DNA of 64,000 nucleotides, from the NCBI GenBank assembly GCA_002269645.1, contig NIVC01000011.1, positions 124,001 through 188,000 of the forward strand, given 5' to 3'. The DNA comes from Macrostomum lignano (taxonomy: Eukaryota). A model generated the notes under the pieces. The model was not told where the DNA came from. It saw only the letters and a list, made by a program, of their open reading frames with translations, and did not search any database. Position numbers and translations under genes: made by a program. The stretch's first letter is position 1; every line of letters starts with the position of its first letter. This document shows positions 8,658-63,589 of this stretch, one piece after another.

Positions 8658-8812
8658 CTTGAATTGGCCTAAAAATTATTCTACAACTTTGGTTCTCTGA
8701 CTTTGAGAGTTTCTACGCTTTGAGAGTGCTGGGTGGTTTTTTACAGGCGTAAAAACCTTGGTTTTAATTGCAATACACAAATTGGTGCTTGTTGGACCAA
8801 AGCAGCAGCGTT

Positions 8813-9789
8813 TCGTACCATAGACAAACACTCGTACCATAGACAAACACTCGTACCATAGACAAACACTCGTACCATAGACAAACACTCGTACCATAGA
8901 CAAACACTCGTACCATAGACAAAGACTCGTACCTTAGGCGAATGCTCGTACCAAAGACACAAACACTCGTACCATAGACAAACACTCGTACCATATACAA
9001 ACACTCATACCATAGACAAAGACTCGTACCATAGGCGAAGCTCTTACCAAAGACAAACACTCGTACCATAGACAAAGACTCGTACCATAGACAAACGCTC
9101 ATACCATAGAAAAAGACTCGTACCATAGGCGAATGCTCGTACCAAAGACAAACACTCGTACCATAGACAAACACTCGTACCATAGACAAACACTCGTACC
9201 ATAGACAAACACTCGTACCATAGACAAACACTCGTACCATAGGCGAATGCTCTTACCAAAGACAAACACTCGTACCATAGACAAAGACTCGTACCATTGA
9301 CAAAGACTCGTACCATAGACAAAGACTCGTACCTTAGGCGAATGCTCGTACCAAAGACAAACACTCGTACCATAGACAAAAACTCGTACCATAGACAAAC
9401 GCTCATACCATAGACAAAGACTCGTACCATAGGCGAATGCTCGTACCAAAGACAAACACTCGTACCATAGACAAACACTCGTACCATAGACAAACACTCG
9501 TACCATATACAAACACTCGTACCATAGACAAACACTCGTACCATAGACAAACACTCGTACCATAGGCGAATGCTCTTACCAAAGACAAACACTCGTACCA
9601 TAGACAAAGACTCGTACCATAGACAAACTCCCATACCATAGACAAAGACTCGTACCATAGGCAAAGACTCGTACCATAGACAAAGACTCGTACCAAAGAC
9701 AAACACTCATACCATAGACAAACTCTCATACCATAGACAAAGACTCGTACCAAAGACAAACTCTCATACCATAGACAAAGACTCGTACC
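8813..9789. repeat. 19-bp minisatellite (~50 copies), interrupted by the LTR element and resuming at 21424-21460
   Basis: Unit CTCGTACCATAGACAAACA with variants. It continues as TACCATAGGCAAATGCTCGTACCAAAGACAAAC right after the right LTR. Confidence 0.95.
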
Positions 9790-10825
9790 TGATGTGTTCC
9801 TTATTACCCGACTTCGGTAATCAAAGAACAATCACTTCTAGCTCTTTAGCTAGGCAACCCAGTAATTCAAACGAAAGTATTCAATTACCTTGACTTCTTA
9901 TGAGATATCTCTCCTTTTAGTCCTTCGTAGATCTCGTGTAGATCTCGATCTGTAGTTCAGGCCTGAATTCGACTCGACTTGTAGTCCTGGTCCGAGTTTC
10001 TCTTTTCTTCTTTTGCCGGCCGGTATCTGTCGTTCGGACCAATTAGAAGCTTCCAAATTAACAATGGGTACCCTGCGCCAAACTGCGGTTTAATATAAGC
10101 CTACTCCTTCTAGCAGTGCCTCTATGCACTCTAGGTATAGCTCCGGAAACCACTGATAGTCTTCTAAGATCTATCAGGGGCAGTCCTTCTGGAGACTGCA
10201 ACCAGTAGAGTCTAAACAGACTCAGGAGTCTCAACAGACTCAAACTAAACTCCAACGAGACGTCTCAAAACACAGGCGCAAATGAGTAAGGCTTACCGCA
10301 AGAACTCGACGAGTCTTCAGTAGGAAGTCCTGTAGTGGCTTCCTCTTCGGAGCTCTTCTCCTTCCGGAGGAATTGTGGCTCCTGGTCCGTTCCGGACCAC
10401 TTGTATTTATAGGCGTTCAGACCTCTCTCGAGGTCGTACATCACTGTCTTCGCAAATGTCAAAGGGTCACGATTCGGTGGCTGTCAAGCATGACAGGGTA
10501 GAAAGTTGCGCAACTAGTCTACTGTAAAAGCGCATGATTGGTTACCGTAGCTGGTAGACTTTGATTGGTTCATCCGGGTGCAACCCGAGTGCAAACCAAA
10601 TGATGACTTGAAGGTGGGGTTTGAATTGACAGTTGTTGGTCGCACGTGATTGGGTGATTTCTAAAATTAGCATGCTCGAGGTCTCTCTCTTCCTATTGGT
10701 TAGTCCGAATATACTTTAGTTCAATGCATACCTTCATTCATGCTCTTCAATTTACTACTAAATAAAATGTGTGAGTAGTACATTAACACTTTTATGTCTT
10801 CTTACGGGAGGTAGAACACTCTACA
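9790..10825 (-). repeat. 3' LTR (1036 bp)
   Basis: Direct repeat of 20387-21423. I saw three differences by eye (2 substitutions, 1 indel). Confidence 0.97.
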
Positions 10826-10840
10826 AAATCTCCCATGTTT
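10826..10840 (-). other. Putative polypurine tract (weak)
   Basis: AAACATGGGAGATTT directly precedes the 3' LTR on the minus strand. Purine-rich but short and interrupted. Confidence 0.4.
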
Positions 10841-11046
10841 ACAAAAAACTCGTCCCGAGTTTTAAATTATAGATGATTGAAACGCATAAAAAGTACGAGC
10901 ATGTCTTTATAAAAATCTTTTGTCACAAGTGTTACAGGTATTTAGTAATGGGTAGTTAAGAGCGTTAGTTATAAAAGTTATTTAAAGGTAAGTATACGCA
11001 TGCAAATGAAATGTTTTTGGTTACAGTATTGACATGTGCGCCAAGA

Positions 11047-11259
11047 CTAACAATAGGCGCACTGCCGCAAACTTCTTCTACCTATCGGGCAATTCTGCCA
11101 GAGCTGAATATAATGTGAGTCGCTTAAACATTGTCCGCATATGCGATGTCTGTTTTCACAAATAATTGGTGGCTTGACAGCCAAGTCATCAGTTAAACAT
11201 ATTGGGCATTCGTAGAGTTGCTGTAGTTGGGGCGCCTGTTTGGACAGTGCGTTGCCCAT
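11047..11259 (-). CDS. 70-aa accessory ORF: N-myristoylation motif plus C3HC4-type RING finger
   Basis: MGNALSK fits MGxxxS. CPIC-x12-CENRH-x2-CGQC-x12-CPI(G)RR, where the last ligand codon GGT is one base from TGT. Strong start context ACAATGG. Confidence 0.7.
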   Translation of the reverse strand: MGNALSKQAPQLQQLYECPICLTDDLAVKPPIICENRHRICGQCLSDSHYIQLWQNCPIGRRSLRQCAYC

Positions 11260-11370
11260 TGTCGTCGTCGCTTGAAGTTTGAAGTCGCTCAGATTAGTCG
11301 CCTCTTACGACAAGCTTGCGAAGCTGTAGAGCTATTCTGACCCGGTCTCTACACGGGTTGTTTTCGCAAC

Positions 11371-13223
11371 TTAACGAGGTCGCAGATTGTAGCCATGTTG
11401 CTGGTTCTCGGTTGATGTTTGTGTCTCCTCGTGTTTTGTTGCGATGTGGCGGTTCGCCGAACGCGTGCGATCAGCGTTGTCTAGTGACGGTAAAAACGTT
11501 GTCGTGTCAGTGTTGATCTTCTTTAGTCGATGAATGCGCACGTAGAATTGGTGCTGATGAGGATCTTGCACATTGGCCAGGCGTGCCGTTGTCGGTGACG
11601 TTAGTTGGACCACTCGATATGGTCCTTTGTACTTCTGTGCGTGTTTGTGCGTCTGTTGCGGCGGATAGTGCAGGTAGACGATGTCGCCGGCTGTCAGAGT
11701 TGTCGATCTCGTGTCGGTGCCGGTGGTTAGAGCCACCTGATTGTCGATGTTGTGCTTGGCTACTTTCCATGCGAGGTGTAGTTGCGTGACGAACTTTTGA
11801 ATGGACGTCGGGACTTCCACATATTGCGATGGTAGTAGTTGCTGTGCCAATAGGTTTGGCGGCTGGAAGTCTCGCCCAAACATTAGAAAGAATGGCGTAT
11901 TGTCCGTTGATCGATGAATAGCGCTGTTGTAGGCCATTGTTACTGCTTGCAGATAGATGATCCAGTCGTCCGGTTGTTGATGCGCGAAGTGTGTAATCAT
12001 CTCGTGTAGGTTGCGGTGAAACCTTTCAACCATGTTCGCCTTCGGATTGTAGGTCGATGTGTAGATCTGCGTGATGTTGAGGATCTTCACCACTTGCTGA
12101 AAGAGTTGAGACGTAAACTGCGATCCATTGTCCGATGTGAGGTTCTTTGGCGTACCGTACTTGCAGATGATGTCGTTGAAGAAACTCATTGCCACTGTCT
12201 GAGCTGTGATGTCCGGTATTGGTATGGCAATAGCAAACTTTGAGAAAATGTCCAAGGCTGTTAGGATGTAGGTGTAGGCTATGCCATGGAGACAGCTCGG
12301 TGGCAGCGGTCCGGTGATGTCGATGCTGAGACAGTCCATAGTTGTTGACTTTGGTATCGATTGTAGCTGTGGTTTTTGTCGTCGTCCTGTCTTCGATGCT
12401 GCGCATGAGTGGCAGTTGTTGCAATACTGCTTGATGTCGCCATGCATGCTTGGCCAAAAGTAGTATTGCTCCACTCTTGCAACGGTTTTGGCTGCCGACA
12501 GGTGTCCAGCGAGTGGGTTGTCGTGCAGCTCGTTGAGAATTGCCTGCCTAAACGAATATGGCATGTAGATTTTAGGTTTGTTGTCACTCATCCAGTAGAG
12601 TCGTGACTTGTTGATTGTTAAATGTTGTCGCTGCTTGCGCAGGAATTTTCGTTCCACGGGGCTGAGCTTGATGTCCTTGTCGTTGTTTTTAACTGCTATG
12701 TAGAAGTTGTCGTGTTCCGTCTCATCCACCAATTCCTTGATGTTAGGAATTGGATGAATGGCGTTGACTTCGTAGGTTCTTGACAGAGCGTCCGCAGCCT
12801 TGTTAGTAATTCCTGGTTTGTAGACGAGCTTGTAGTTGTAGTCCTGGATCTTGAGTGTCATCCTGATGAGTCGGTTGTTTGTTTGTCCTTTTGTAGTTAC
12901 GACGTAGGTCAGCGGTGCGTGATCTGTGCGTACTATCGTCTGTAATGGAGATCCATAGATGTAGTAGTGAAACTGTCGTAGGGCGAACAGAACTCCTAGT
13001 AGTTCTCGTTCCGTAGCTGACCATTTTGTCTCATTCGGTTTAAGTGCTCGACTGACGTAGGCTATAGGTCGTTCCTTTTTGTCTTCAGTTTCCTGTAGTA
13101 GGACTGCTCCGAGTCCCGTTCCTGAGGCGTCTGTCTCGATGATGAAGGGTTTGTCGAAGTCCGGATGCTGTAGCAGTGCGTCTGATGTCAGCTGTCGTTT
13201 GATTTCGTCAAAACTTTCTTGTT
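11371..13223 (-). CDS. pol: pol 3' part: RNase H and integrase (HHCC, DDE, GPY/F)
   Basis: Open frame from 13212: FDEIKRQL...IETDASGTGLGAVL...ERELLGV...TDHAPL; HDNPLAGH...CNNCHSC; SIDITGP...SDNGSQF...VERFHR; KYKGPYRV. Confidence 0.95.
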
Positions 13224-14213
13224 CGTGACGGTAAAAACGTTGTCGTGTCAGTGTTGATCTTCTTTAGTCGATGAATGCGCACGTAGAATTGGTGCTGATG
13301 AGGATCTTGCACATTGGCCAGGCGTGCCGTTGTCGGTGACGTTAGTTGGACCACTCGATATGGTCCTTTGTACTTCTGTGCGTGTTTGTGCGTCTGTTGC
13401 GGCGGATAGTGCAGGTAGACGATGTCGCCGGCTGTCAGAGTTGTCGATCTCGTGTCGGTGCCGGTGGTTAGAGCCACCTGATTGTCGATGTTGTGCTTGG
13501 CTACTTTCCATGCGAGGTGTAGTTGCGTGACGAACTTTTGAATGGACGTCGGGACTTCCACATATTGCGATGGTAGTAGTTGCTGTGCCAATAGGTTTGG
13601 CGGCTGGAAGTCTCGCCCAAACATTAGAAAGAATGGCGTATTGTCCGTTGATCGATGAATAGCGCTGTTGTAGGCCATTGTTACTGCTTGCAGATAGATG
13701 ATCCAGTCGTCCGGTTGTTGATGCGCGAAGTGTGTAATCATCTCGTGTAGGTTGCGGTGAAACCTTTCAACCATGTTCGCCTTCGGATTGTAGGTCGATG
13801 TGTAGATCTGCGTGATGTTGAGGATCTTCACCACTTGCTGAAAGAGTTGAGACGTAAACTGCGATCCATTGTCCGATGTGAGGTTCTTTGGCGTACCGTA
13901 CTTGCAGATGATGTCGTTGAAGAAACTCATTGCCACTGTCTGAGCTGTGATGTCCGGTATTGGTATGGCAATAGCAAACTTTGAGAAAATGTCCAAGGCT
14001 GTTAGGATGTAGGTGTAGGCTATGCCATGGAGACAGCTCGGTGGCAGCGGTCCGGTGATGTCGATGCTGAGACAGTCCATAGTTGTTGACTTTGGTATCG
14101 ATTGTAGCTGTGGTTTTTGTCGTCGTCCTGTCTTCGATGCTGCGCATGAGTGGCAGTTGTTGCAATACTGCTTGATGTCGCGATGATGTCGCGTGGATCA
14201 AGAGTGGAGCAAT
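13224..14213 (-). other. Templated insertion in pol: 957-bp copy of the element's own integrase region plus a complex junction
   Basis: 13225-14181 matches 11484-12440 (offset 1741). It is flanked by the direct repeat ACTTTCTTGTT at 13213-13223 and 14214-14224. 14199-14216 is the reverse complement of 12462-12479. Confidence 0.9.
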
Positions 14214-16303
14214 ACTTTCTTGTTGCTTTTGTGTCCAATTCTCCTGCTTCCATTTGTCGAACTTGAGCAGGTCGTACAGCGGCTTTGCTGTCTTCGCGAA
14301 GTTGGGTAAGAACTTTCGGAAGTATTGCGCAAGTCCAAGAAATGATTGGACCTTCGTTTTGCTAGTTGGCGTAGGAAACTTTTTCACTTTATCCACGTTG
14401 TCTGGGTCCGGTGAAATTCCTTTGGCTGTCACCTGATGTCCCAGGTAACGCACGTTGTCTCGGAAGAATTTGCATTTAGTTGGTTGTAGCTTCAGACCTT
14501 GACGTTGTATAAGCGCGAGGGCCTTCTCCGTCGCTTCATAGAGTCGTTCGAAGTCTTCTCCGTAGGCCAAGATGTCGTCAACATAGTGCAACAGGTTCGT
14601 GCATCCTGCAAGCATGTATGCTGTTAGTCGGCTCATCGTTGCTGGGCTGTTGCTGAGTCCCATCGGCGATCGATTGTACTCGTATACTTGTCCATTGTAG
14701 GTTTTGAAAGCCGTGTACTGTCGTGACTCTTTCTCGATTTCAATTTGCCAAAATCCATGACGTAGATCGAACACTGTGAACAATTTTGCCGTGTTGAGCT
14801 TTGCTAGTAGTTCGGAGATCTTCGGTAGGCTTTGCTGATCCGTCGGTATGTACTTGTTCAGTAGTCTGAAGTCACATACGAGTCGTCTTTCGTTAGTCTC
14901 CTTCTTTTGCACCAAGAGACATGGTGATGAGTATGCTGAAATGGCTTTGCTGATGATGCCGTGTTTCAGCATTTTGTCGATAATCTCATCGAAGTGCTGT
15001 TGCAGATGCTTGGCGATCGGGTACGGTTTGCACTGAATTGGTTCCGTGTGCGGCAGAAGTTTGATTTCCTGTTTGATGTCCTTGGCTCGTCCGATGTCGT
15101 AGTCATGGTGGCAGAAAGCGTCGTTGTACTTCCACAACAGCTGTCGAACTTTCCTCTTTTGCTGTTCCGTAATCGGGCTGTCATCCAAATTGATCTTCTT
15201 TTGAAATTCTTCCTCTGTTAGTCGTGGAGTCGCTTGCTCAATCAGCATAACCGATGCTTGGGTGTTGAGATGACCGATGCACATTCCTTGTCGTAGATGA
15301 ACCGTTTCTGTGTTCGGGTTGAATATTTGTACTGGCAGCTGTTTATCTTTTGCAACCAGTACTAGTGCCGTAGGCATCATAATTTGGTGTTTAGCCGTGA
15401 CTCTTCTGTTTGGGTCGAATATCATTGCTTCCTCCGTTGCGTTAGTTGCCTTTGCCTTTATCCAGCAGGCGCTCTCCGGTTGGATGATGACATCTTGTTG
15501 CAATGTTACTTTTGGTAGTACTCGGATCTGGTTGATCAATGGTTGTTCTACCGAGTCGATCTTAAACGTTTGCTTATTGAAGTCGAAGGTCAATGGTAGT
15601 CTAAGCTGCTTGAACGTGTCGATGCCAACAATAACGTCCTGGTTTGGGAGTCTGTCGATGACGTACGATGGAACTGTCAAATGTTTATTAGCGATTCTTA
15701 AATCAATGTCGGCTTTTCCCAGAATGTTTAGCGAATGTCCTCCTGCTCCTGCAACTGCGATTGTTGCTGGCCGTAGAGCAAGTCGTAGCTTGTTGCACAG
15801 TTGTTTTGATATAACTGTGATGGAGCTGCCGGAGTCGAGTAGCGCTCGACATGGTAGATTGTTGATTACCACTTGAGCCATGGCTTTGCCAATTTCGGCG
15901 TGTAGAGTACATACGTAGTTCTCTGGCCATTTTGGGTCTTGCTGTTCTGCTTGATAGTTGGGTGGTTGTATTCTTGGTGCCGTTGGTGTTGTCGGAATCG
16001 ATGGATATAGCCGCGTTGCTAGTGTCGGTTGCCCTTGAACCTCACGATGTGCAGTTTCTGTTAGTTCTAAACTGTTGTCGCCTTCCGTTGTCGTTCTTTG
16101 CATTATGGCATTAACTGTCTTCTTAGCTCTTGGACAAGTTTGACTGAAGCACCGTACGATTGACGAAATGATGAAGATTGCCGTGACAATCCACACAATG
16201 CAAGCACCGTAGAAGATGAATCCTTGATAGAGACTTCCTCTTCCATTGAGCAGCTCCCAGAAGCTGTTTGTCCAAAATGATTTGATGGCGCTGTCCATTG
16301 AAA
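14214..16303 (-). CDS. pol: Env membrane-proximal region and TM anchor, linker, aspartic protease, spacer and reverse transcriptase, all in one frame
   Basis: SFWTNSFWELL...FIFYGACIVWIVTAIFIISSIVRCF (TM, ~16220-16150); ALLDSGSSITVI (~15835); RLVCDFRLLN, DLRHGFWQI, PMGLSNSPAT, YVDD (14574-14585). Confidence 0.93.
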
Positions 16304-18551
16304 CAAGGACGGGAAATCTTCCTGTCCGGTTCCTTTGTCCTTTCTTGTGAACAGCTGGTGAATCATCTTGCGTTGGGTGATGAACGCTTGCAAGAAGTCG
16401 TTGATCGTCCATCCTGGTGTTATCTCGTCAAGTTGGATATCGGCGAATGGCGTATACTTCGTTCTGTTGAATCGGATTTTCAAATCCTCCATGTCGTAGT
16501 TTTCGTCGACGATTACTTCCGGTTCTGTGATGTTTGCTGTCGTTCCAGTTGTTTTGATGACGTGTAGTGCATTGTCCAGTTGATAATAGTTTGCTGCCGT
16601 GGTGCAAGGTCTCGGTATTGCGGTGCCAACGATGATGTTGTGTACCGTGTCCAAGAATCCCTGAATTCGTTTTCCTTCGTAGAACGCTTCAATCCTTGGC
16701 TTGTCGTAGCAGGTTGTTGACGTGTTCGACGGCAAGATGTTAAAGTGCTGTATCGGCGTGCACTTGTATATCAACAGATGCTCGTATATTGGAACTGCCA
16801 AAACGTTCGTCATTCCGGTGATTTTACGAAAAGTCATCGTAGGGTTGACATAGTAGTTTTGTCTGGCATAATTTAAGTTGATTGCGTGCATTTTGCAAGT
16901 TAGCTGGACCAGTGTTCGATGCAAGTGGTTTAACTGGTTGTGTAGATTGTGATCCAAAGCCGTTATCTTTGCTGACAGTAGTCGGTTTGACACCAGTTTG
17001 GGACGTTCGATGTCACGTCGTCGTCTGTTCTGTTGTTCCTGCTGTTGATACGTTCCGTTGATGATCGCCAGAAAGGTTTGTTTGTCGTCATCTTTTACGT
17101 AGACTGGTATCTCTTGTTCCGAGATGAATAGTGTCTTGTCTGTATCCTTGCATTTCAGTTTTTGCTCGACTGGTTTCTTTTGAAATGTCAGTGCCAAGTC
17201 TCCTGACTTTGCCAAAAACGTGTTTGACAGTAGTCCTCCTTCAACTGTGTGATACTTTTGAAGCTTGCAGTCAATTTCCGGCTCAACTTCCCACGCGAAG
17301 AAGTATTGTCGTGACTTAGATGGTTCTTCATATCGTGAGTCGCCTCTGCGTATAATTTGCCATCGATAGTCTTGATGATATGTTGGACTCAACGGTAAGC
17401 TGTATAGTTCCTCATTCCGCAGTATCGGCGTTGGACACCATCCTTTGCTGTATCGGCAGTCACTTAATTGCAGTTGTAGCGACTCCATTTTTTCAAAAGG
17501 ATTGTGGTAGAATGGAATATTCCTGATTAGGTAACTGTTTCGTGTCATGTAGTTAGTCCATGCTTCCGAAAAGTGTACATATCGTCCGTTTGCTGAGTTC
17601 TTCGTTCGGTAAAGTTGTGCCTCCCCCACTTTCTCATCCGGTTCTAGCTGACCATCCTTTGAGAACAGTGTTTGGTTCCATTGTAGACATTCAGCGTGCG
17701 ACACATGTAGTTCGTGTTGCCAAAATCGAATTCTGTTCCACTGTCCTCGCCAAACTTTTTCCACTAGGTGCTTGTCTCTAAAGCACACTATTCCGAGTTG
17801 TCGATGCTTCTTGATGTTAGCTTTGTAGAGATCAATTGTGATCTTCTTTGGCTTCGTCTGGTTTGTCTTGAAGTAGCTGCATTTGATGTCGGTTGGTATC
17901 TTGTAGATCATCGGTTGGATATGCGCATCCGTTGGACATATCATTGGTTTCTCCATTGCTGTTGCTTTGGTGACTACTGCCGTCAGTAGTATTATGATGA
18001 TCCAGAATATCCAGAATCGCCATTTCCTGAACGTTGCCGTTGTCTTTGCTGGCATTGGCTGCGGCTGCCATTCGTTATCTTCTGCGTCCGCATCGTATTC
18101 TTCCTCTTGTTCCATTGGCGTTTCCGAGCGCAAGGCATCCGATTCGTTCCGCTGCTTGTCGTCTTCATCATTTTCTTCCTTGCTTTCTTCCGATGTTGTA
18201 GTTTTGTCACTCCATTGTCTGCGGTACCTTACTTCGGCCTTGTAGTCGACCGTTTGAATGTAGGCTTCACCATTTCGTTTATATCGGATCTCGTAGCATT
18301 GATCGCTGTCGGAGCTTAGATTTCTTTCTTCCATTCCTTTGTGCCTTCCGTCTTCATGTTCTTTGTCGGCGGCTTGGTTGTCATCAGCGTCATTCTGCAT
18401 CTCATAATCGTGATCGCTGCTTTCTTCTTGCTGTTCTTCTTCCATCTCTGTATTTCCGTCGTTGCTTCTTTCTTTGTCATCCTTCGTTGCCAGTTCTTTG
18501 TCGTTGCCTTTGTTTGTTTCTTCTTTTCTTTCACTGATGTCGCTTGCAATG
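16304..18551 (-). CDS. env: Acidic linker, internal signal/TM segment and envelope-like glycoprotein ectodomain
   Basis: Hydrophobic FWIFWIIIILLTAVVTKATA (18016-17957). Cys-rich ectodomain with N-glycan sequons (NQT x2, NGT, NTS, NIT, NRT). Furin-type RRRR/D at 17015-17026. Confidence 0.8.
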
Positions 18552-19690
18552 TTTTTTCTGTGCTCACTTCTGTCTTTTCTTCTTCGCTGTCAATGTTAGT
18601 TTCTTTCATTTCGACCATGCTGATGTTTTTTGTCTTTTCGCTGCTCTCCGCATCGAGCCAGTCGATTTCATTGATAGTGAAGTCCATTTCCAAGTCGTCT
18701 ATCGTGAAGACTTGCTGCTCTTGCTGTTCGCTTTCCGGTGTGTACGTGATGGCGTTTGCATATCGTTGCATCGCTTGCGTTGGTTGCTTGGGCATGTATC
18801 TGGCGTTTCGCGGTCTGTAGCCATTGTTTCCTAAGCGTTTCGTGTTTTGCTGCTGCCAATTTTGATGCTGCTGTTGCCATGGTTTTTGCGGCTTCCGTCT
18901 GTTGAATGGCTGTCGCGGCATATCATTTCTTGTTGACCGATGAGGACAATGTATTTGGTAGTGTCCTTCTCGTCCACAGTAATAGCATCTGGCTTGGGCT
19001 CGTTCATTTTGTCTTTTTTGTTCGGCGATAACGGCTGTTTGATGTTGCATCAGTTTGTTTAGTTGCTGTGTCAGTTTCTGCACTTCTGTGTTGCCGGTTG
19101 TCATTAGTGGAGCGCTTGCTTCCCACTGCATTCCGCACCGTAAAAGGTCTTCCTCGGTTTCAATGTTTCGCGCAAAAGTCTATCCGCAGTGACGGCTGTG
19201 CATTGTTTATTACGTGCAGGATGAGGTTTTGTTCACGGTCCATCAATCGTTGTCGCTCTCTTGCGGCTAACTCCGCTGCGCCTGGAGGTGGCTGATCCGC
19301 AGCTGGCAGCGTTGGCTGATGCAGTGCCTTAATTATTTGACGTATATCGTCCACGAAGGTCAGGAAGGATTCTGTTGGCTGCATCCGTCTGTTATGCAAC
19401 TTGTGCAGTAGCACTGACCTGTTTGTGCCACAGCGGTTGAAGTGTGCGCGCAGTTGAATGATTAATGCTGGGTAGTTTTGCTGTGTTGCCGCGCCTAGTT
19501 TACCATAAATCTCTCGTGCAGTGCCTTGGAGGAGTGGTGGCAACAGTTGCGCTTTTTCTGGATTTTGTAGGTTGTATTCCCTACATACCAGGTCAAAATG
19601 ATCAACAAAGGTGTTAAAGTCTTTTTCCATAGAAAAGGTGCCAACTGTCTCTTTGATATCTCTGTGCACCGTTGGATTGCGCCGCGCCAT
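18552..19690 (-). CDS. gag: Gag: capsid-like domain and CCHC zinc knuckle, split by a 1-nt indel at ~19175
   Basis: FNTFVDHFDLVC...KAQLLPPLLQGTAREIY capsid-like segment; CYYCGREGHYQIHC knuckle; Q/N/R-rich nucleocapsid tail. Confidence 0.88.
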
Positions 19691-20373
19691 GTTGTTGATG
19701 GGATAGAACGGTAGCTCTAGGTCTGGGTCGATTTGTAATGGATCTTCCAGTGTGGTGTTTCTTTCGAAATAAACTTCGGTTGTAACTGATTGTCTCGCGG
19801 CGCTTTTGACACCTCAATTTGTTATGTCTGACCTTGAACGGAATTCGGCTTTTGGCTGCTTTTTCTGACCTCTTATTCGCTGGCTGATTTTCGCACTTAT
19901 GCGGCGTCCCGCAAAGTGTATCTTTAAAGTGCTTGAAGTGCAGCTGCTTCTTGCTTTTTTCAAAGGCCTTTCTTGTCTTCGTGACGTGCCTTGTCACGTT
20001 TTATCAAATTTCGGTTTGTTTTAGCTTTCGTCAAGTGTTTTTAATTTCGGTTTTGTTTTAGTGTGTATTGATTATTTTTCGGTTTGTTTTCAGTGTACCG
20101 GACGTTGTTTTCGGTTTTGTTTAAGGTTTACTCTTGCTCGAGCTCGTTAAAAACAAAAATTTAACACGCGTGCTCAAACGTTACTCAAAATTGACAGGTA
20201 CTCAAGCCTGTATACCTAAGCTTTTACTCGAGTTTCAAATCGTACAAAAATCGAAAAGTGTCGAAAAGTGTTACCTCTAACACGTGCGCGCAAAATTAAT
20301 GAAGTCGCTCTTTCGTCACTTTACAATAGCTTGGCCAGGCTATTGCTCAAAAGTTTGAGTAGTGCCGAGAGGG

Positions 20374-20384
20374 CGAGATCACCA
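20374..20384 (-). other. Putative primer-binding site
   Basis: TGGTGATCTCG starts 2 nt after the 5' LTR CA end. TGG is complementary to tRNA CCA. Confidence 0.6.
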
Positions 20385-20386
20385 AT

Positions 20387-21423
20387 TGATGTGTTCCTTA
20401 TTACCCGACTTCGGTAATCAAAGAACAATCACTTCTAGCTCTTTAGCTAGGCAACCCAGTAATTCAAACGAAAGTATTCAATTACCTTGACTTCTTATGA
20501 GATATCTCTCCTTTTAGTCCTTCGTAGATCTCGTGTAGATCTCGATCTGTAGTTCAGGCCTGAATTCGACTCGACTTGTAGTCCTGGTCCGAGTTTCTCT
20601 TTTCTTCTTTTGCCGGCCGGTATCTGTCGTTCGGACCAATTAGAAGCTTCCAAATTAACAATGGGTACCCTGCGCCAAACTGCGGTTTAATATAAGCCTA
20701 CTCCTTCTAGCAGTGCCTCTATGCACTCTAGGTATAGCTCCGGAAACCACTGATAGTCTTCTAAGATCTATCAGGGGCAGTCCTTCTGGAGACTGCAACC
20801 AGTAGAGTCTAAACAGACTCAGGAGTCTCAACAGACTCAAACTAAACTCCAACGAGACGTCTCAAAACACAGGCGCAAATGAGTAAGGCTTACCGCAAGA
20901 ACTCGACGAGTCTTCAGTAGGAAGTCCTGTAGTGGCTTCCTCTTCGGAGCTCTTCTCCTTCCGGAGGAATTGTGGCTCCGGGTCCGTTCCGGACCACTTG
21001 TATTTATAGGCGTTCAGACCTCTCTCGAGGTCGTACATCACTGTCTTCGCAAATGTCAAAGGGTCACGATTCGGTGGCTGTCAAGCATGACAGGGTAGAA
21101 AGTTGCGCAACTAGTCTACTGTAAAAGCGCATGATTGGTTACCGTAGCTGGTAGACTTTGATTGGTTCATCCGGGTGCAACCCGAGTGCAAACCAAATGA
21201 TGACTTGAAGGTGGGGTTTGAATTGACAGTTGTTGGTCGCACGTGATTGGGTGATTTCTAAAATTAGCATGCTCGAGGTCTCTCTCTTCCTATTGGTTAG
21301 TCCGAATATACTTATAGTTCAAAGCATACCTTCATTCATGCTCTTCAATTTACTACTAAATAAAATGTGTGAGTAGTACATTAACACTTTTATGTCTTCT
21401 TACGGGAGGTAGAACACTCTACA
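20387..21423 (-). repeat. 5' LTR (1037 bp)
   Basis: Direct repeat of 9790-10825, followed on the minus strand by the PBS and gag. Confidence 0.97.
21001..21296 (-). promoter_or_regulatory. LTR U3 promoter: TATA box and four CCAAT boxes
   Basis: Minus-strand TATAAATA at 21001-21008. CCAAT at 21134-38, 21161-65, 21246-50 and 21292-96. All are mirrored in the 3' LTR. Confidence 0.65.
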
Positions 21424-25630: not shown

Positions 25631-27398
25631 CTAAATAGGAGCCGCGATACCGCGGAATTGCTGCTTAGCCGCGGCGGCGGAGCCCATCTCAAGGGTCACG
25701 AGTACGGCTCGCACCTTAAACGGCTCTCCGGCAGCTTCGGCAGCCGCGTTGGCAGCCGCTGGCAGCAATAGTAGATCCTCAGGCCCATCGGCAGACTGCG
25801 GGCCATCATCGCTCGGTCGAGAAGACGAGTCCATTTCAACTCGGACAGGCGGCAGAGAGCGGTCCCTGGGCAGCAGAAACACTGCCGCCCGGTAGCCGCA
25901 GCGCGATTCGCTCGGCCAGGCGCGCCGCATCGCCTCGGACACTCCGGCCGGGGACACGGGCGGCTCGGACTCCGGCCATGGATGCAGCAGCAAGCAAATC
26001 GGACGGCCGATATTTTCGGCCATGCTGATGGCGTTTACTACGGCATTTATGCCGGTCTTGCTTGCGCCGTGCTTGATTAGATCTAATTCGCGACAGCTCA
26101 GGTTGCTGCCGGAGCTGACTGAGCAGCGATTGTCGGCCAGGCATCCAAATATGCTCACCATGGCCAGAAGCTCGTCGATCTAATGAGAGCGGAGCAGCAG
26201 AGCGCCACGTTTTCTACTTCAAAAGTTAAAGCAAGAAGAGCCACAGGTGGTGATATTGTGCCCCTAGTGTTGTACGAGCTATAGAGCTCAAGGCATATGG
26301 GCTGAAGTATGTAAGAATAGTCTAAGCCTCTAAGGATGATATTCAGAATCTGGATTGAGATTAGTATAAGAAATCTGTAGGAGAGTGAGATTAAGAATCT
26401 GGGAAAGATGTTTGAGAATCCAGGAGTGAGACCAGGATTCAAAGAGTCAGATTGAGAATCCAGAAGTGAGACCAGGATTCTACGAGTTAGATTGAGAATC
26501 CAGGAGTGACACCAGGACAAAAGTCAGATTGAGAATCCAGGAGTGAGACCAGGACTCTAAGAGTCAGATTAAGAATCTGGCAAGCGATATTGACAATCAG
26601 GCAAGTGAGATTGACAATCCGGCTAGTGAGATTGACAATCCGGCAAGTGAGATTGACAATCCGGCTAGTGAGATTGACAATCCGGCAAGTGAGATTGACA
26701 ATCCGGCAAGTGAGATTGACAATCCGGCAAGTGAGATTGACAATCCGGCAAGTGAGATTGACAATCCGGCTAGTGAGATTGACAATCCGGCAAGTGAGAT
26801 TGACAATCCGGCAAGTGAGATTGACAATCCGGCAAGTGAGATTGACAATCCGGCAAGTGAGATTGACAATCCGGCAAGTGAGATTGACAATCCGGCAAGT
26901 GAGATTGACAATCCGGCAAGTGAGATTGACAATCCGGCTAGTGAGATTGACAATCCGGCAAGTGAGATTGACAATCCGGCAAGTGAGATTGACAATCCGG
27001 CAAGTGAGATTGACAATCCGGCTAGTGAGATTGACAATCCGGCAAGTGAGATTGACAATCCGGCAAGTGAGATTGACAATCCGGCAAGTGAGATTGACAA
27101 TCTGGCCAGTGAGATTGACAATCCGGCAAGTGAGATTGAGAACTCGGGAGTGAGACGAATAATTAGACTACCCGCAGAGAAACGCTTGAAAAATGAAGAC
27201 AATGGAACTTCTCCTAACCTGCGAGCCATTCAGCGAGCACTTCGACAACTCCCCTTGGATGAGGCACCCATGGCTCAGCTTCAGCGGCAGCAGGCCGCAC
27301 TCTTGCACGGCTGTCTGCAGCCAGTCCAGCGAATGGGCCGACTGTAGCGGCACTTGAACTTGAAGGCTCGACCAAAGCGTTTCAGTTGATTGTCGCAT
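25631..27398 (-). CDS. Unidentified two-exon gene, ~242 aa (exons 27398-27219 and 26179-25631)
   Basis: ATG at 27398, phase-0 donor CAG|GTTAGG, acceptor CTCTCATTAG|ATC. The joined frame is open to a stop at 25631 and has GC-rich, coding-like composition. No motif recognised. Confidence 0.5.
26340..26589. repeat. Degenerate tandem repeats (GAGAATCCAGGAGTGAGACCAGGA-like) grading into the 21-bp array
   Basis: Recurrent GATTGAGAATCC and GTGAGACCAGGA motifs. Confidence 0.7.
26590..27140. repeat. 21-bp minisatellite (~26 copies)
   Basis: Unit GTGAGATTGACAATCCGGCAA, containing the near-palindrome GATTGACAATC. Confidence 0.97.

Positions 27399-48218: not shown

Positions 48219-63589
<15,371 letters not shown>

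Follow-up and report, generated by a model that had tools for sequence, protein, structure and literature searches.

A 70-codon RING-finger reading frame in a Macrostomum lignano errantivirus is the remnant of a tandem-RING accessory cassette

The retroelement at the locus

The window analyzed here is a 64,000-nt stretch of the Macrostomum lignano genome. It contains an LTR retroelement in which Pfam profiles identify protease, reverse transcriptase (RT) and integrase. Between gag and protease lies a match to PF24664 (Monjiviricetes/gB/chuvirus-like fusion glycoprotein; E 1.7e-5, under the curated cut-off). The parts of the element are as follows.

9790..10825, minus strand: 3' LTR, 99.7% identical to the 5' LTR
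10829..10840, minus strand: polypurine tract (PPT)
11371..15842, minus strand: pol (protease, RT, RNase H region, integrase), with frame breaks in the window copy
15954..16010, minus strand: cytosolic tail between the Env TM and protease, with late-domain-like YPSI, PTAP and PPNY
16149..18025, minus strand: env, gB/Monjiviricetes-type, frame broken in the window copy
16220-16149, minus strand: TM of env
17026-17006, minus strand: furin-like site of env
18025-17957, minus strand: internal signal anchor of env
18319..19690, minus strand: gag, with MARRNP start and CCHC at 18987-18946; in the window copy its frame is interrupted near 19170
20373..20384, minus strand: primer-binding site (PBS), 12 nt, identical to the PBS of the published Mlig_errantivirus_2
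20387..21423, minus strand: 5' LTR, with a donor-like AAG/GTAA site near 20486

The target-site duplication is 4 bp, and the insertion adjoins a 19-bp satellite array. The LTRs, PBS, PPT, target-site duplication and PR-RT-IN order are those of a Ty3/gypsy element, and a gB-type env between gag and pol, with hydrophobic segments on either side, places it with the GAG-ENV-POL errantiviruses. Such errantiviruses are known from nematodes, bryozoans and flatworms (Chary and Hayashi, eLife 2026, PMC13524379). With Platyhelminthes_Rhabditophora_Mlig_errantivirus_2, as presented in the available files of that article, the element shares a Ty3/gypsy pol, a gB-type env between gag and pol, and the PBS; the 864-nt LTR reported there is the same as in two sister subfamilies, the match being one of features and not of sequence alignment. 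The element family thus appears to have been catalogued already. Since env sits between gag and pol, it is not in the 3' slot, and the description of the short 3' open reading frame (ORF) as occupying the usual env slot, made in an initial annotation of the window, does not hold.

A single open frame of about 2,480–2,540 codons spans gag, env and pol in 7 of the 20 sister loci that were checked. Eight polyproteins, five of them close relatives, were inspected for hydrophobic segments and for late-domain motifs, whose definitions were taken from general knowledge. All eight have one hydrophobic segment after Gag and another after the Env ectodomain. YPxI follows the second segment in 8/8, PTAP is present in 7/8, and PPxY is present in 8/8 (in the tail after the second segment in five, ahead of the first segment in three). 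A single polyprotein of this kind (19690-11371 in the window, and in sister loci) must thread the ER membrane twice, with Gag and Pol cytosolic and Env lumenal, and the late-domain-like motifs are placed between the Env TM and protease, not in Gag.

Other features of the locus were seen in passing. Within pol there is an internal duplication of 972 bp (11477-12448 / 13219-14188, 99.6% identical); it is absent in six sister copies compared and is either a real rearrangement or an assembly artefact. Short-period tandem repeats are abundant in the window (8736-9790, 26436-27273, 58685-61500 and others). Integrase ends in GYNLRPR (11394-11374), and the Y-x-L-R-P-R ending is kept in distant subfamilies. 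This ending is reminiscent of the nucleosome-binding motif of foamy virus Gag.

A short ORF that is the start of a longer gene

A minus-strand ORF of 70 codons (11259-11047) begins 111 nt beyond the integrase stop, with the PPT and 3' LTR downstream. Its start context is ACAATGG, its N-terminus is MGNALSK, and it has RING-type spacing with Gly as the eighth ligand. The initial annotation had reported all of this (a same-strand 70-aa ORF between integrase and the PPT in strong Kozak context, with this start, RING spacing and terminal Gly), and had noted that Gag, which begins MARRNP, lacks Gly2; each point was confirmed on reading the sequence. Pfam gives only weak matches to the ORF taken alone, under cut-off (zf-RING_2, E 0.023; Sina_RING, E 0.11). 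A search of the worm's own genome with the 70-aa query yielded 108 matches among 127 candidates scored, which indicates that the ORF is more than a chance frame. The 3' region of the window is arranged as follows.

11047..11259, minus strand: 5' remnant of gene 1, 70 codons, with predicted myristoylation start, damaged RING1 and the first two Cys of RING2
10998..11046, minus strand: accessory-gene homology beyond the stop, 10998 being the end of similarity to full-cassette copies
10866..10997, minus strand: 132-nt spacer common to the window's subfamily; blastn finds no counterpart in the retrieved loci of other subfamilies

The frame that begins at this start is 216–222 aa long in other subfamilies, where it also encodes a second RING and a ~110-aa helical domain. 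Gene 1 is followed there by one or two paralogues of ~195–212 aa, ahead of the PPT. Undeleted copies have 2–3 paralogous genes (about 195–222 aa), each encoding two tandem RING-HC domains and a helical C-terminal domain. Beyond 10998 in the window, the remainder of gene 1 and all paralogues are absent. What had been taken for a complete micro-ORF is the beginning of a truncated gene.

To count copies, we anchored a census on a conserved motif upstream of gene 1 and examined 104 copies. Full-length first genes, across five N-terminal types, were found in 29, and the short 3' region of the window in 22. Another 26 share a different deletion, which keeps both RINGs and removes the C-terminal domain and the paralogues; its product is 124–144 aa. 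The remaining 27 are otherwise broken or incompletely covered. Copies counted in this way are not equivalent to independent insertions, and assembly redundancy may inflate the counts: the M. lignano assembly has been described as redundant, and the animal as a hidden allotetraploid (PMC12801592, available text). The cassette was deleted twice separately (22 and 26 copies), and LTR pairs are 99.7–100% identical. Intact cassette proteins are most likely dispensable for copying.

Some copies combine parts of different origin. Loci L102, L103, L105 and L106 have mosaic cassettes, in which gene 1 and gene 2 come from different subfamilies. In its leader the window copy matches L105/L106; in its coding part it is more similar to other subfamilies.

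Decay of the remnant and selection on intact genes

The missing ligand was initially presented as a single-base difference; it is not peculiar to this copy. Ligand 8 is missing in 21/21 readable copies of the window's subfamily. Among the 20 copies with the 70-aa ORF, ligand 6 is also missing in 15 and ligand 7 in two. The ORF of the window lacks the eight-ligand set that defines a RING-HC (C3HC4). The 20 remnant copies hold nine amino-acid-changing and five silent variants. Integrase, compared in 15 of these copies (five were left out for indels), gives 24N:69S, and relaxation of the remnant (9N:5S) relative to integrase is significant (p=0.01). Set against an intact gene-1 pair (18N:21S), the remnant shows no significant difference (p=0.35).

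Could the 70-aa product itself be selected in the window's subfamily, for example as a decoy or dominant negative carrying a myristoyl group? The ATG with its Kozak context is intact, as are Gly2 and the upstream element, and 20 of the 22 copies share the same 70-codon frame. This common length, however, is explained by recent common descent; the commonest variant lacks one ligand in each zinc site, three of the nine distinct amino-acid differences hit Cys, and the remaining two copies are frameshifted. We regard selection on the short product as very unlikely. The 70-aa ORF is, with high confidence, a decaying stump of gene 1 from the 3' accessory cassette of a Ty3/gypsy errantivirus, and its length is a product of decay, not that of a micro-protein by design. 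This subfamily lost the paralogues and, from gene 1, the C-terminal two thirds; it gained a stop, lost ligands, and went on transposing.

For the full-length genes, dN/dS was estimated by pairwise NG86 on natural copies, using pairs with dS<1.2 and leaving out more diverged or saturated ones. Gene-1 values are 0.12–0.36 (8/55 pairs unsaturated) and paralogue values are 0.20, 0.23, 0.28 and 0.50 (4/91 pairs unsaturated; the last is based on eight changes). Full-length accessory genes are under purifying selection. The initial annotation had named conservation and dN/dS across copies as a check and disruption in sister copies as grounds for abandoning its reading. The full-length genes are selected and keep their ligands, and the window's subfamily lacks ligand 8; disruption is found throughout that subfamily, not in the family as a whole. 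These data identify a selected multi-gene tandem-RING cassette that recently inserted subfamilies have lost on two occasions; one of these losses is represented in the window.

Gene 1 is merely 73% identical between elements whose RT is 99–100% identical, and the slot-2 paralogues differ in a pair of elements sharing 99% RT identity. Judged from such comparisons, divergence and swapping are much faster in the cassette than in pol. Since no dN/dS above 1 was seen in pairwise comparisons of the accessory genes, an arms race is suggested solely by this fast divergence and swapping.

Tandem RINGs of the full-length proteins

We aligned 27 full-length proteins, 23 from the Macrostomum genome and four database relatives. 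Each of 16 zinc-ligand columns is kept in 26 or 27 of the 27. The RING1 ligands (C18, C21, C34, H38, C41, C44, C57 and C60) have the C3HC4 order and spacing of a RING-HC in 26–27/27, and the C3HC4 ligands of RING2, which has an 8-residue first loop, are likewise kept. A WP motif opens the helical domain in 26/27 proteins. RING1 and RING2 are homologous by profile comparison (hhalign 96%, E 2e-9); BLASTP of RING1 against RING2 within one protein finds no match.

In RING E3s, the linchpin is defined as position n+1, following the last ligand, and is canonically Arg; at least half of RINGs do not have an Arg linchpin, and having one is no proof of activity (PMC7667886, available text). An Arg directly follows the last ligand of RING1 in 27/27 proteins and that of RING2 in 0/27, so RING1 has the linchpin residue of a RING E3. 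The best PDB sequence match is the SIAH1 RING (E 2e-6), and Sina_RING matches 24/27 proteins at E<=0.01. The RING scores seen for full-length proteins in Pfam are under the curated cut-offs, and the 13 families matched by the 27 proteins include no SIAH C-terminal family. The likeness to SIAH-type RING-HC domains noted in the initial annotation is borne out, in a gene family that is real and selected. The accessory proteins share with SIAH/Sina E3s the C-x3-H spacing, the Sina_RING match and the linchpin Arg; they differ in having tandem RINGs and an unassigned helical C-terminal domain, and in being retroelement-borne. The SIAH zinc fingers and substrate-binding domain were not detected in them, which places them outside the SIAH family.

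An AlphaFold model built from the 27 sequences has a pLDDT of 90, compared with 76, and a poor RING1, for a model from nine. RING1 of the model overlays known RINGs at 2.0–2.5 Å over about 48 residues. The top Foldseek hits are RING E3s (rmsd 2.0–2.6 Å, best E 0.04, Z<=4.5), with RING2 barely covered; the pLDDT-90 model has no fold match at E<=0.001 or Z>=5. The C-terminal domain matches no recognized fold or family (best Z 5.8 and 4.7), and for this reason a role as substrate receptor rests on analogy. A predicted complex of the RING pair with a human E2 scored 0.04, a value informative in neither direction. Considering ligands, linchpin and sequence matches, the full-length proteins are likely to be RING E3 ubiquitin ligases encoded by the element, and we refer to them as putative E3s.

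Myristoylation, membranes and budding

Gly2 is present in 5/27 proteins and absent in 22/27. In a midpoint-rooted tree, all Gly2 proteins fall into a single, strongly supported clade that branches from among gene-1 lineages without Gly2. Because of this confinement to one nested clade, predicted N-myristoylation looks like a later gain within gene 1. The starts MGNALSK / MGNAQSR are kept between gene-1 subfamilies whose synonymous sites are close to saturation. Transmembrane-strength hydrophobic stretches are absent from 25/25 accessory proteins. The initial suggestion of a membrane-anchored E3 ligase thus survives in part: a putative E3 is the best reading of the full-length copies, and the anchor is predicted in one clade only.

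Arenavirus Z is a single-RING protein of about 90–100 aa, with a Gly2 myristoylation signal and C-terminal late domains (PTAP/PPxY). One accessory clade resembles it in combining a predicted Gly2 myristoylation signal with a RING; the Gly2 signal is also present in the window ORF. In contrast to Z, the selected form of the accessory protein is about 195–222 aa, with two RINGs, no late domains and optional Gly2. It had been proposed that the short ORF encodes a Z-like myristoylated RING micro-protein, supplying matrix or budding function in place of a non-myristoylated Gag. The conserved starts and the lack of Gly2 in Gag are in keeping with this idea, as is the 26-copy deletion class, which mostly retains Gly2 and both RINGs. 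However, the 70-aa form is a truncation without full zinc ligands, so its length reflects decay, and Gly2 is limited to the single clade. PTAP, PPxY and LYPxL are absent from 25/25 accessory proteins, unlike the polyproteins, which have late-domain motifs (PTAP 7/8, PPxY 8/8, YPxI 8/8) and also carry the internal signal anchor after Gag. Since this anchor would tether Gag to the membrane, Gag would need no myristoyl group. Cellular E3 RINGs rank first in sequence searches; arenavirus Z is absent among the 60 of 117 sequence matches listed and from the 34 matches of the 70-aa ORF. In a fold search with the weaker model, Lassa Z ranked 42 (E 1.5), after many cellular RINGs. A Z-like function is extremely unlikely.

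The proteins might instead be E3 ligases that serve the element's own cycle, either by ubiquitinating Env or the membrane-threaded polyprotein, with ESCRT sorting or quality control as the outcome, or by removing an entry receptor to block superinfection. A polyprotein that spans the membrane twice and has late-domain-like motifs would offer a target, a myristoylated clade would reach membranes, and there is a cellular precedent in ZNRF2, a myristoylated RING E3 acting on membrane proteins (PMC4889327, available text). Yet the cassette-less subfamilies retain an open env-containing polyprotein and recent insertions, 22 of the 27 family proteins lack Gly2, and divergence and swapping of the cassette far outpace pol. 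We judge this alternative unlikely.

An upstream RNA element and expression of the cassette

Two features lie between the integrase stop and the accessory ATG.

11296..11358, minus strand: conserved non-coding element, 63 nt
11260..11295, minus strand: A/C-rich, AUG-free leader preceding the accessory ATG

The 63-nt element is 74–98% identical among five subfamilies, compared with 31–69% for the adjoining leaders. Its 20-nt core occurs 104 times in the genome, versus two for a control pattern. It can be folded as an H-type pseudoknot plus two hairpins, a possible structure; the tentative covariation consists of two both-sided changes among three sequence types. Folding z-scores, computed for pseudoknot-free structures, are just -0.6 to -0.9, and Rfam contains no family for the element.

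This element raises the possibility that the full-length proteins are non-enzymatic regulators of element RNA, acting in Rev-/CERV-like export or translation control with the 63-nt element as response element. In favor of this, the near-invariant element and gene 1 go together one-to-one (104 motif matches versus 108 ORF matches; control 2), and Cer1, reported to be sister to a flatworm gB-env errantivirus (PMC13524379), encodes the Cys-rich accessory export factor CERV (PMC10309623). But the CERV domains, as described in the available text, are no RINGs, the invariant linchpin Arg and SIAH-like RING indicate E2 activation, and three diverged paralogues plus a myristoylated clade suit a single nuclear RNA target poorly. 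We consider RNA regulation improbable, and retain the putative E3 assignment in what follows.

The gene-1 ATG context is strong in all subfamilies. YAG occurs within 2 nt of the ATG in 10/10 slot-2 genes, 0/7 slot-1 genes and 0/5 slot-3 genes, the ten slot-2 sequences being related and not independent. Slot-2 genes begin 16–73 nt past the preceding stop. The YAG and short gap are equally compatible with spliced-leader (SL) trans-splicing and with cis-splicing. About 30% of M. lignano genes are trans-spliced, and in its operons the most frequent gap is near 100 bp (PMC8629364, available text), making leader trans-splicing possible for the cassette. Cis-splicing from the donor-like LTR site is likewise possible. 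No GT..AG joint between LTR and cassette was found in contigs of four presumed-RNA runs compared with one sister copy; contigs cannot show absence, and the gene 2 acceptor lies at the very end of the stretch compared. Readthrough of the integrase stop codon was considered and rejected: the spacer is 106–146 nt, its frame is not conserved, and in the window the loop contains an in-frame stop.

Relatives, precedents and a proposed role

A UniRef protein labeled Macrostomum lignano holds near-identical copies of the paralogous genes. A full HMMER scan gave five relatives at E<=1e-10, one labeled Macrostomum lignano and four contig proteins. The latter (P0002, P0004, P0005 and P0006) have the same tandem-RING design at 20–34% identity, and the family may extend beyond the Macrostomum genome. 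Word-indexed protein searches with the accessory family gave no match, metagenome contigs held no relative of it, viral contigs yielded just one generic giant-virus RING, and the leads from an Atlas search were all below 0.9, with none for the C-terminal domain. No host donor gene for the cassette was identified in these searches.

Large DNA viruses (herpesvirus ICP0-type, baculovirus, nimavirus and giant viruses) encode RING E3s as ubiquitin tools against the host. Lentiviral Vif, Vpr and Vpu borrow host ligases and encode no RING. The weak fold and feature look-alikes of the accessory proteins are mostly large-DNA-virus RINGs, with no significant homology beyond generic RING. We infer that the cassette is comparable in action to a viral RING E3 accessory gene; it belongs to neither arenavirus Z nor SIAH.

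Among retroelements, the nearest precedent found is the polyprotein of the giant planarian gypsy elements Burro/GYPSM1 (PMC6431247, available text). These are likewise flatworm gypsy elements with ubiquitin- or apoptosis-related domains (AIR1 'RING Zn-finger', MATH/TRAF and BIR), suggested to meddle with host systems. The Burro domains lie within a polyprotein of 4,873 aa, whereas those of Macrostomum are encoded downstream of integrase by tandem-RING genes that stand alone and are duplicated. CERV of C. elegans Cer1 (PMC10309623) and the bdelloid ORF3s (PMC5408684) are also gypsy-type accessory genes with separate spliced messages; CERV shares its start with gag and is no RING protein, and the available text of the bdelloid paper contains neither 'RING' nor 'ubiquitin'. 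In PMC13524379, 'RING' is absent from the main text and seven supplementary files, which do not describe the 3' cassette, and the main text has no 'zinc finger', 'myristoyl' or 'accessory'. Nor was the cassette found by terms in the available text of PMC13524379, PMC5408684, PMC6338049 and PMC12801592 (main text), or in that of PMC7264820, PMC12440569, PMC11963269 and PMC13547354. In the freely accessible articles searched, we found no LTR element described as carrying a tandem-RING cassette of separate genes.

On balance we lean towards the following overall reading: the ORF in the window is the stump of a cassette whose intact proteins are trans-acting putative E3 ligases, with variable substrate domains and host targets. 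RING1 would activate host E2~Ub, RING2 would be structural, and the variable C-terminal domain would, by analogy, pick substrates. One gene-1 clade would have gained N-myristoylation and probably acts at membranes. Their action would be in trans, with host factors for restriction or silencing as the most likely targets; proposed action of this kind would explain why copies can drop the cassette. Gene 2 is probably expressed via splicing to the acceptor just before its ATG (in cis, or by spliced-leader trans-splicing), and gene 1 probably relies for its expression on the conserved structured element that precedes it. A bolder version, which we find doubtful, sees an arsenal of tandem-RING ligases, duplicated, swapped between subfamilies, targeted to compartments and operon-like, with gene 1 expressed via a new RNA element and gene 2 via SL trans-splicing, that degrades host anti-transposon factors.

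How LTR retrotransposons in animals counter host silencing is largely open, and element-encoded counter-defense proteins have rarely been identified. The interest here lies in the cassette, the 70-aa ORF of the window being merely a remnant. A recently active family, in what is probably a flatworm amenable to laboratory work, offers natural subfamilies with and without the cassette, several paralogues with a biochemical prediction (E3) and a conserved cis-element. Substrates of the cassette proteins would point straight at host restriction factors, and the cassette would show that invertebrate errantiviruses can match the complexity of retroviruses with accessory genes.

Two minor observations concern other copies of the family. 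Loci L049, L050 and L056 (G000 C301, C525 and C352) are non-autonomous copies in which part of env and most of pol are deleted; all three retain a full-length accessory gene 1, those on C301 and C525 also gene 2, and they are possible trans-suppliers of the cassette. On contigs C87, C1130, C2121, C272, C1405, C3033 and C4009 of G000, copies and fragments belonging to different subfamilies are densely clustered, a pattern expected of nested-insertion hotspots or piRNA-cluster-like loci.
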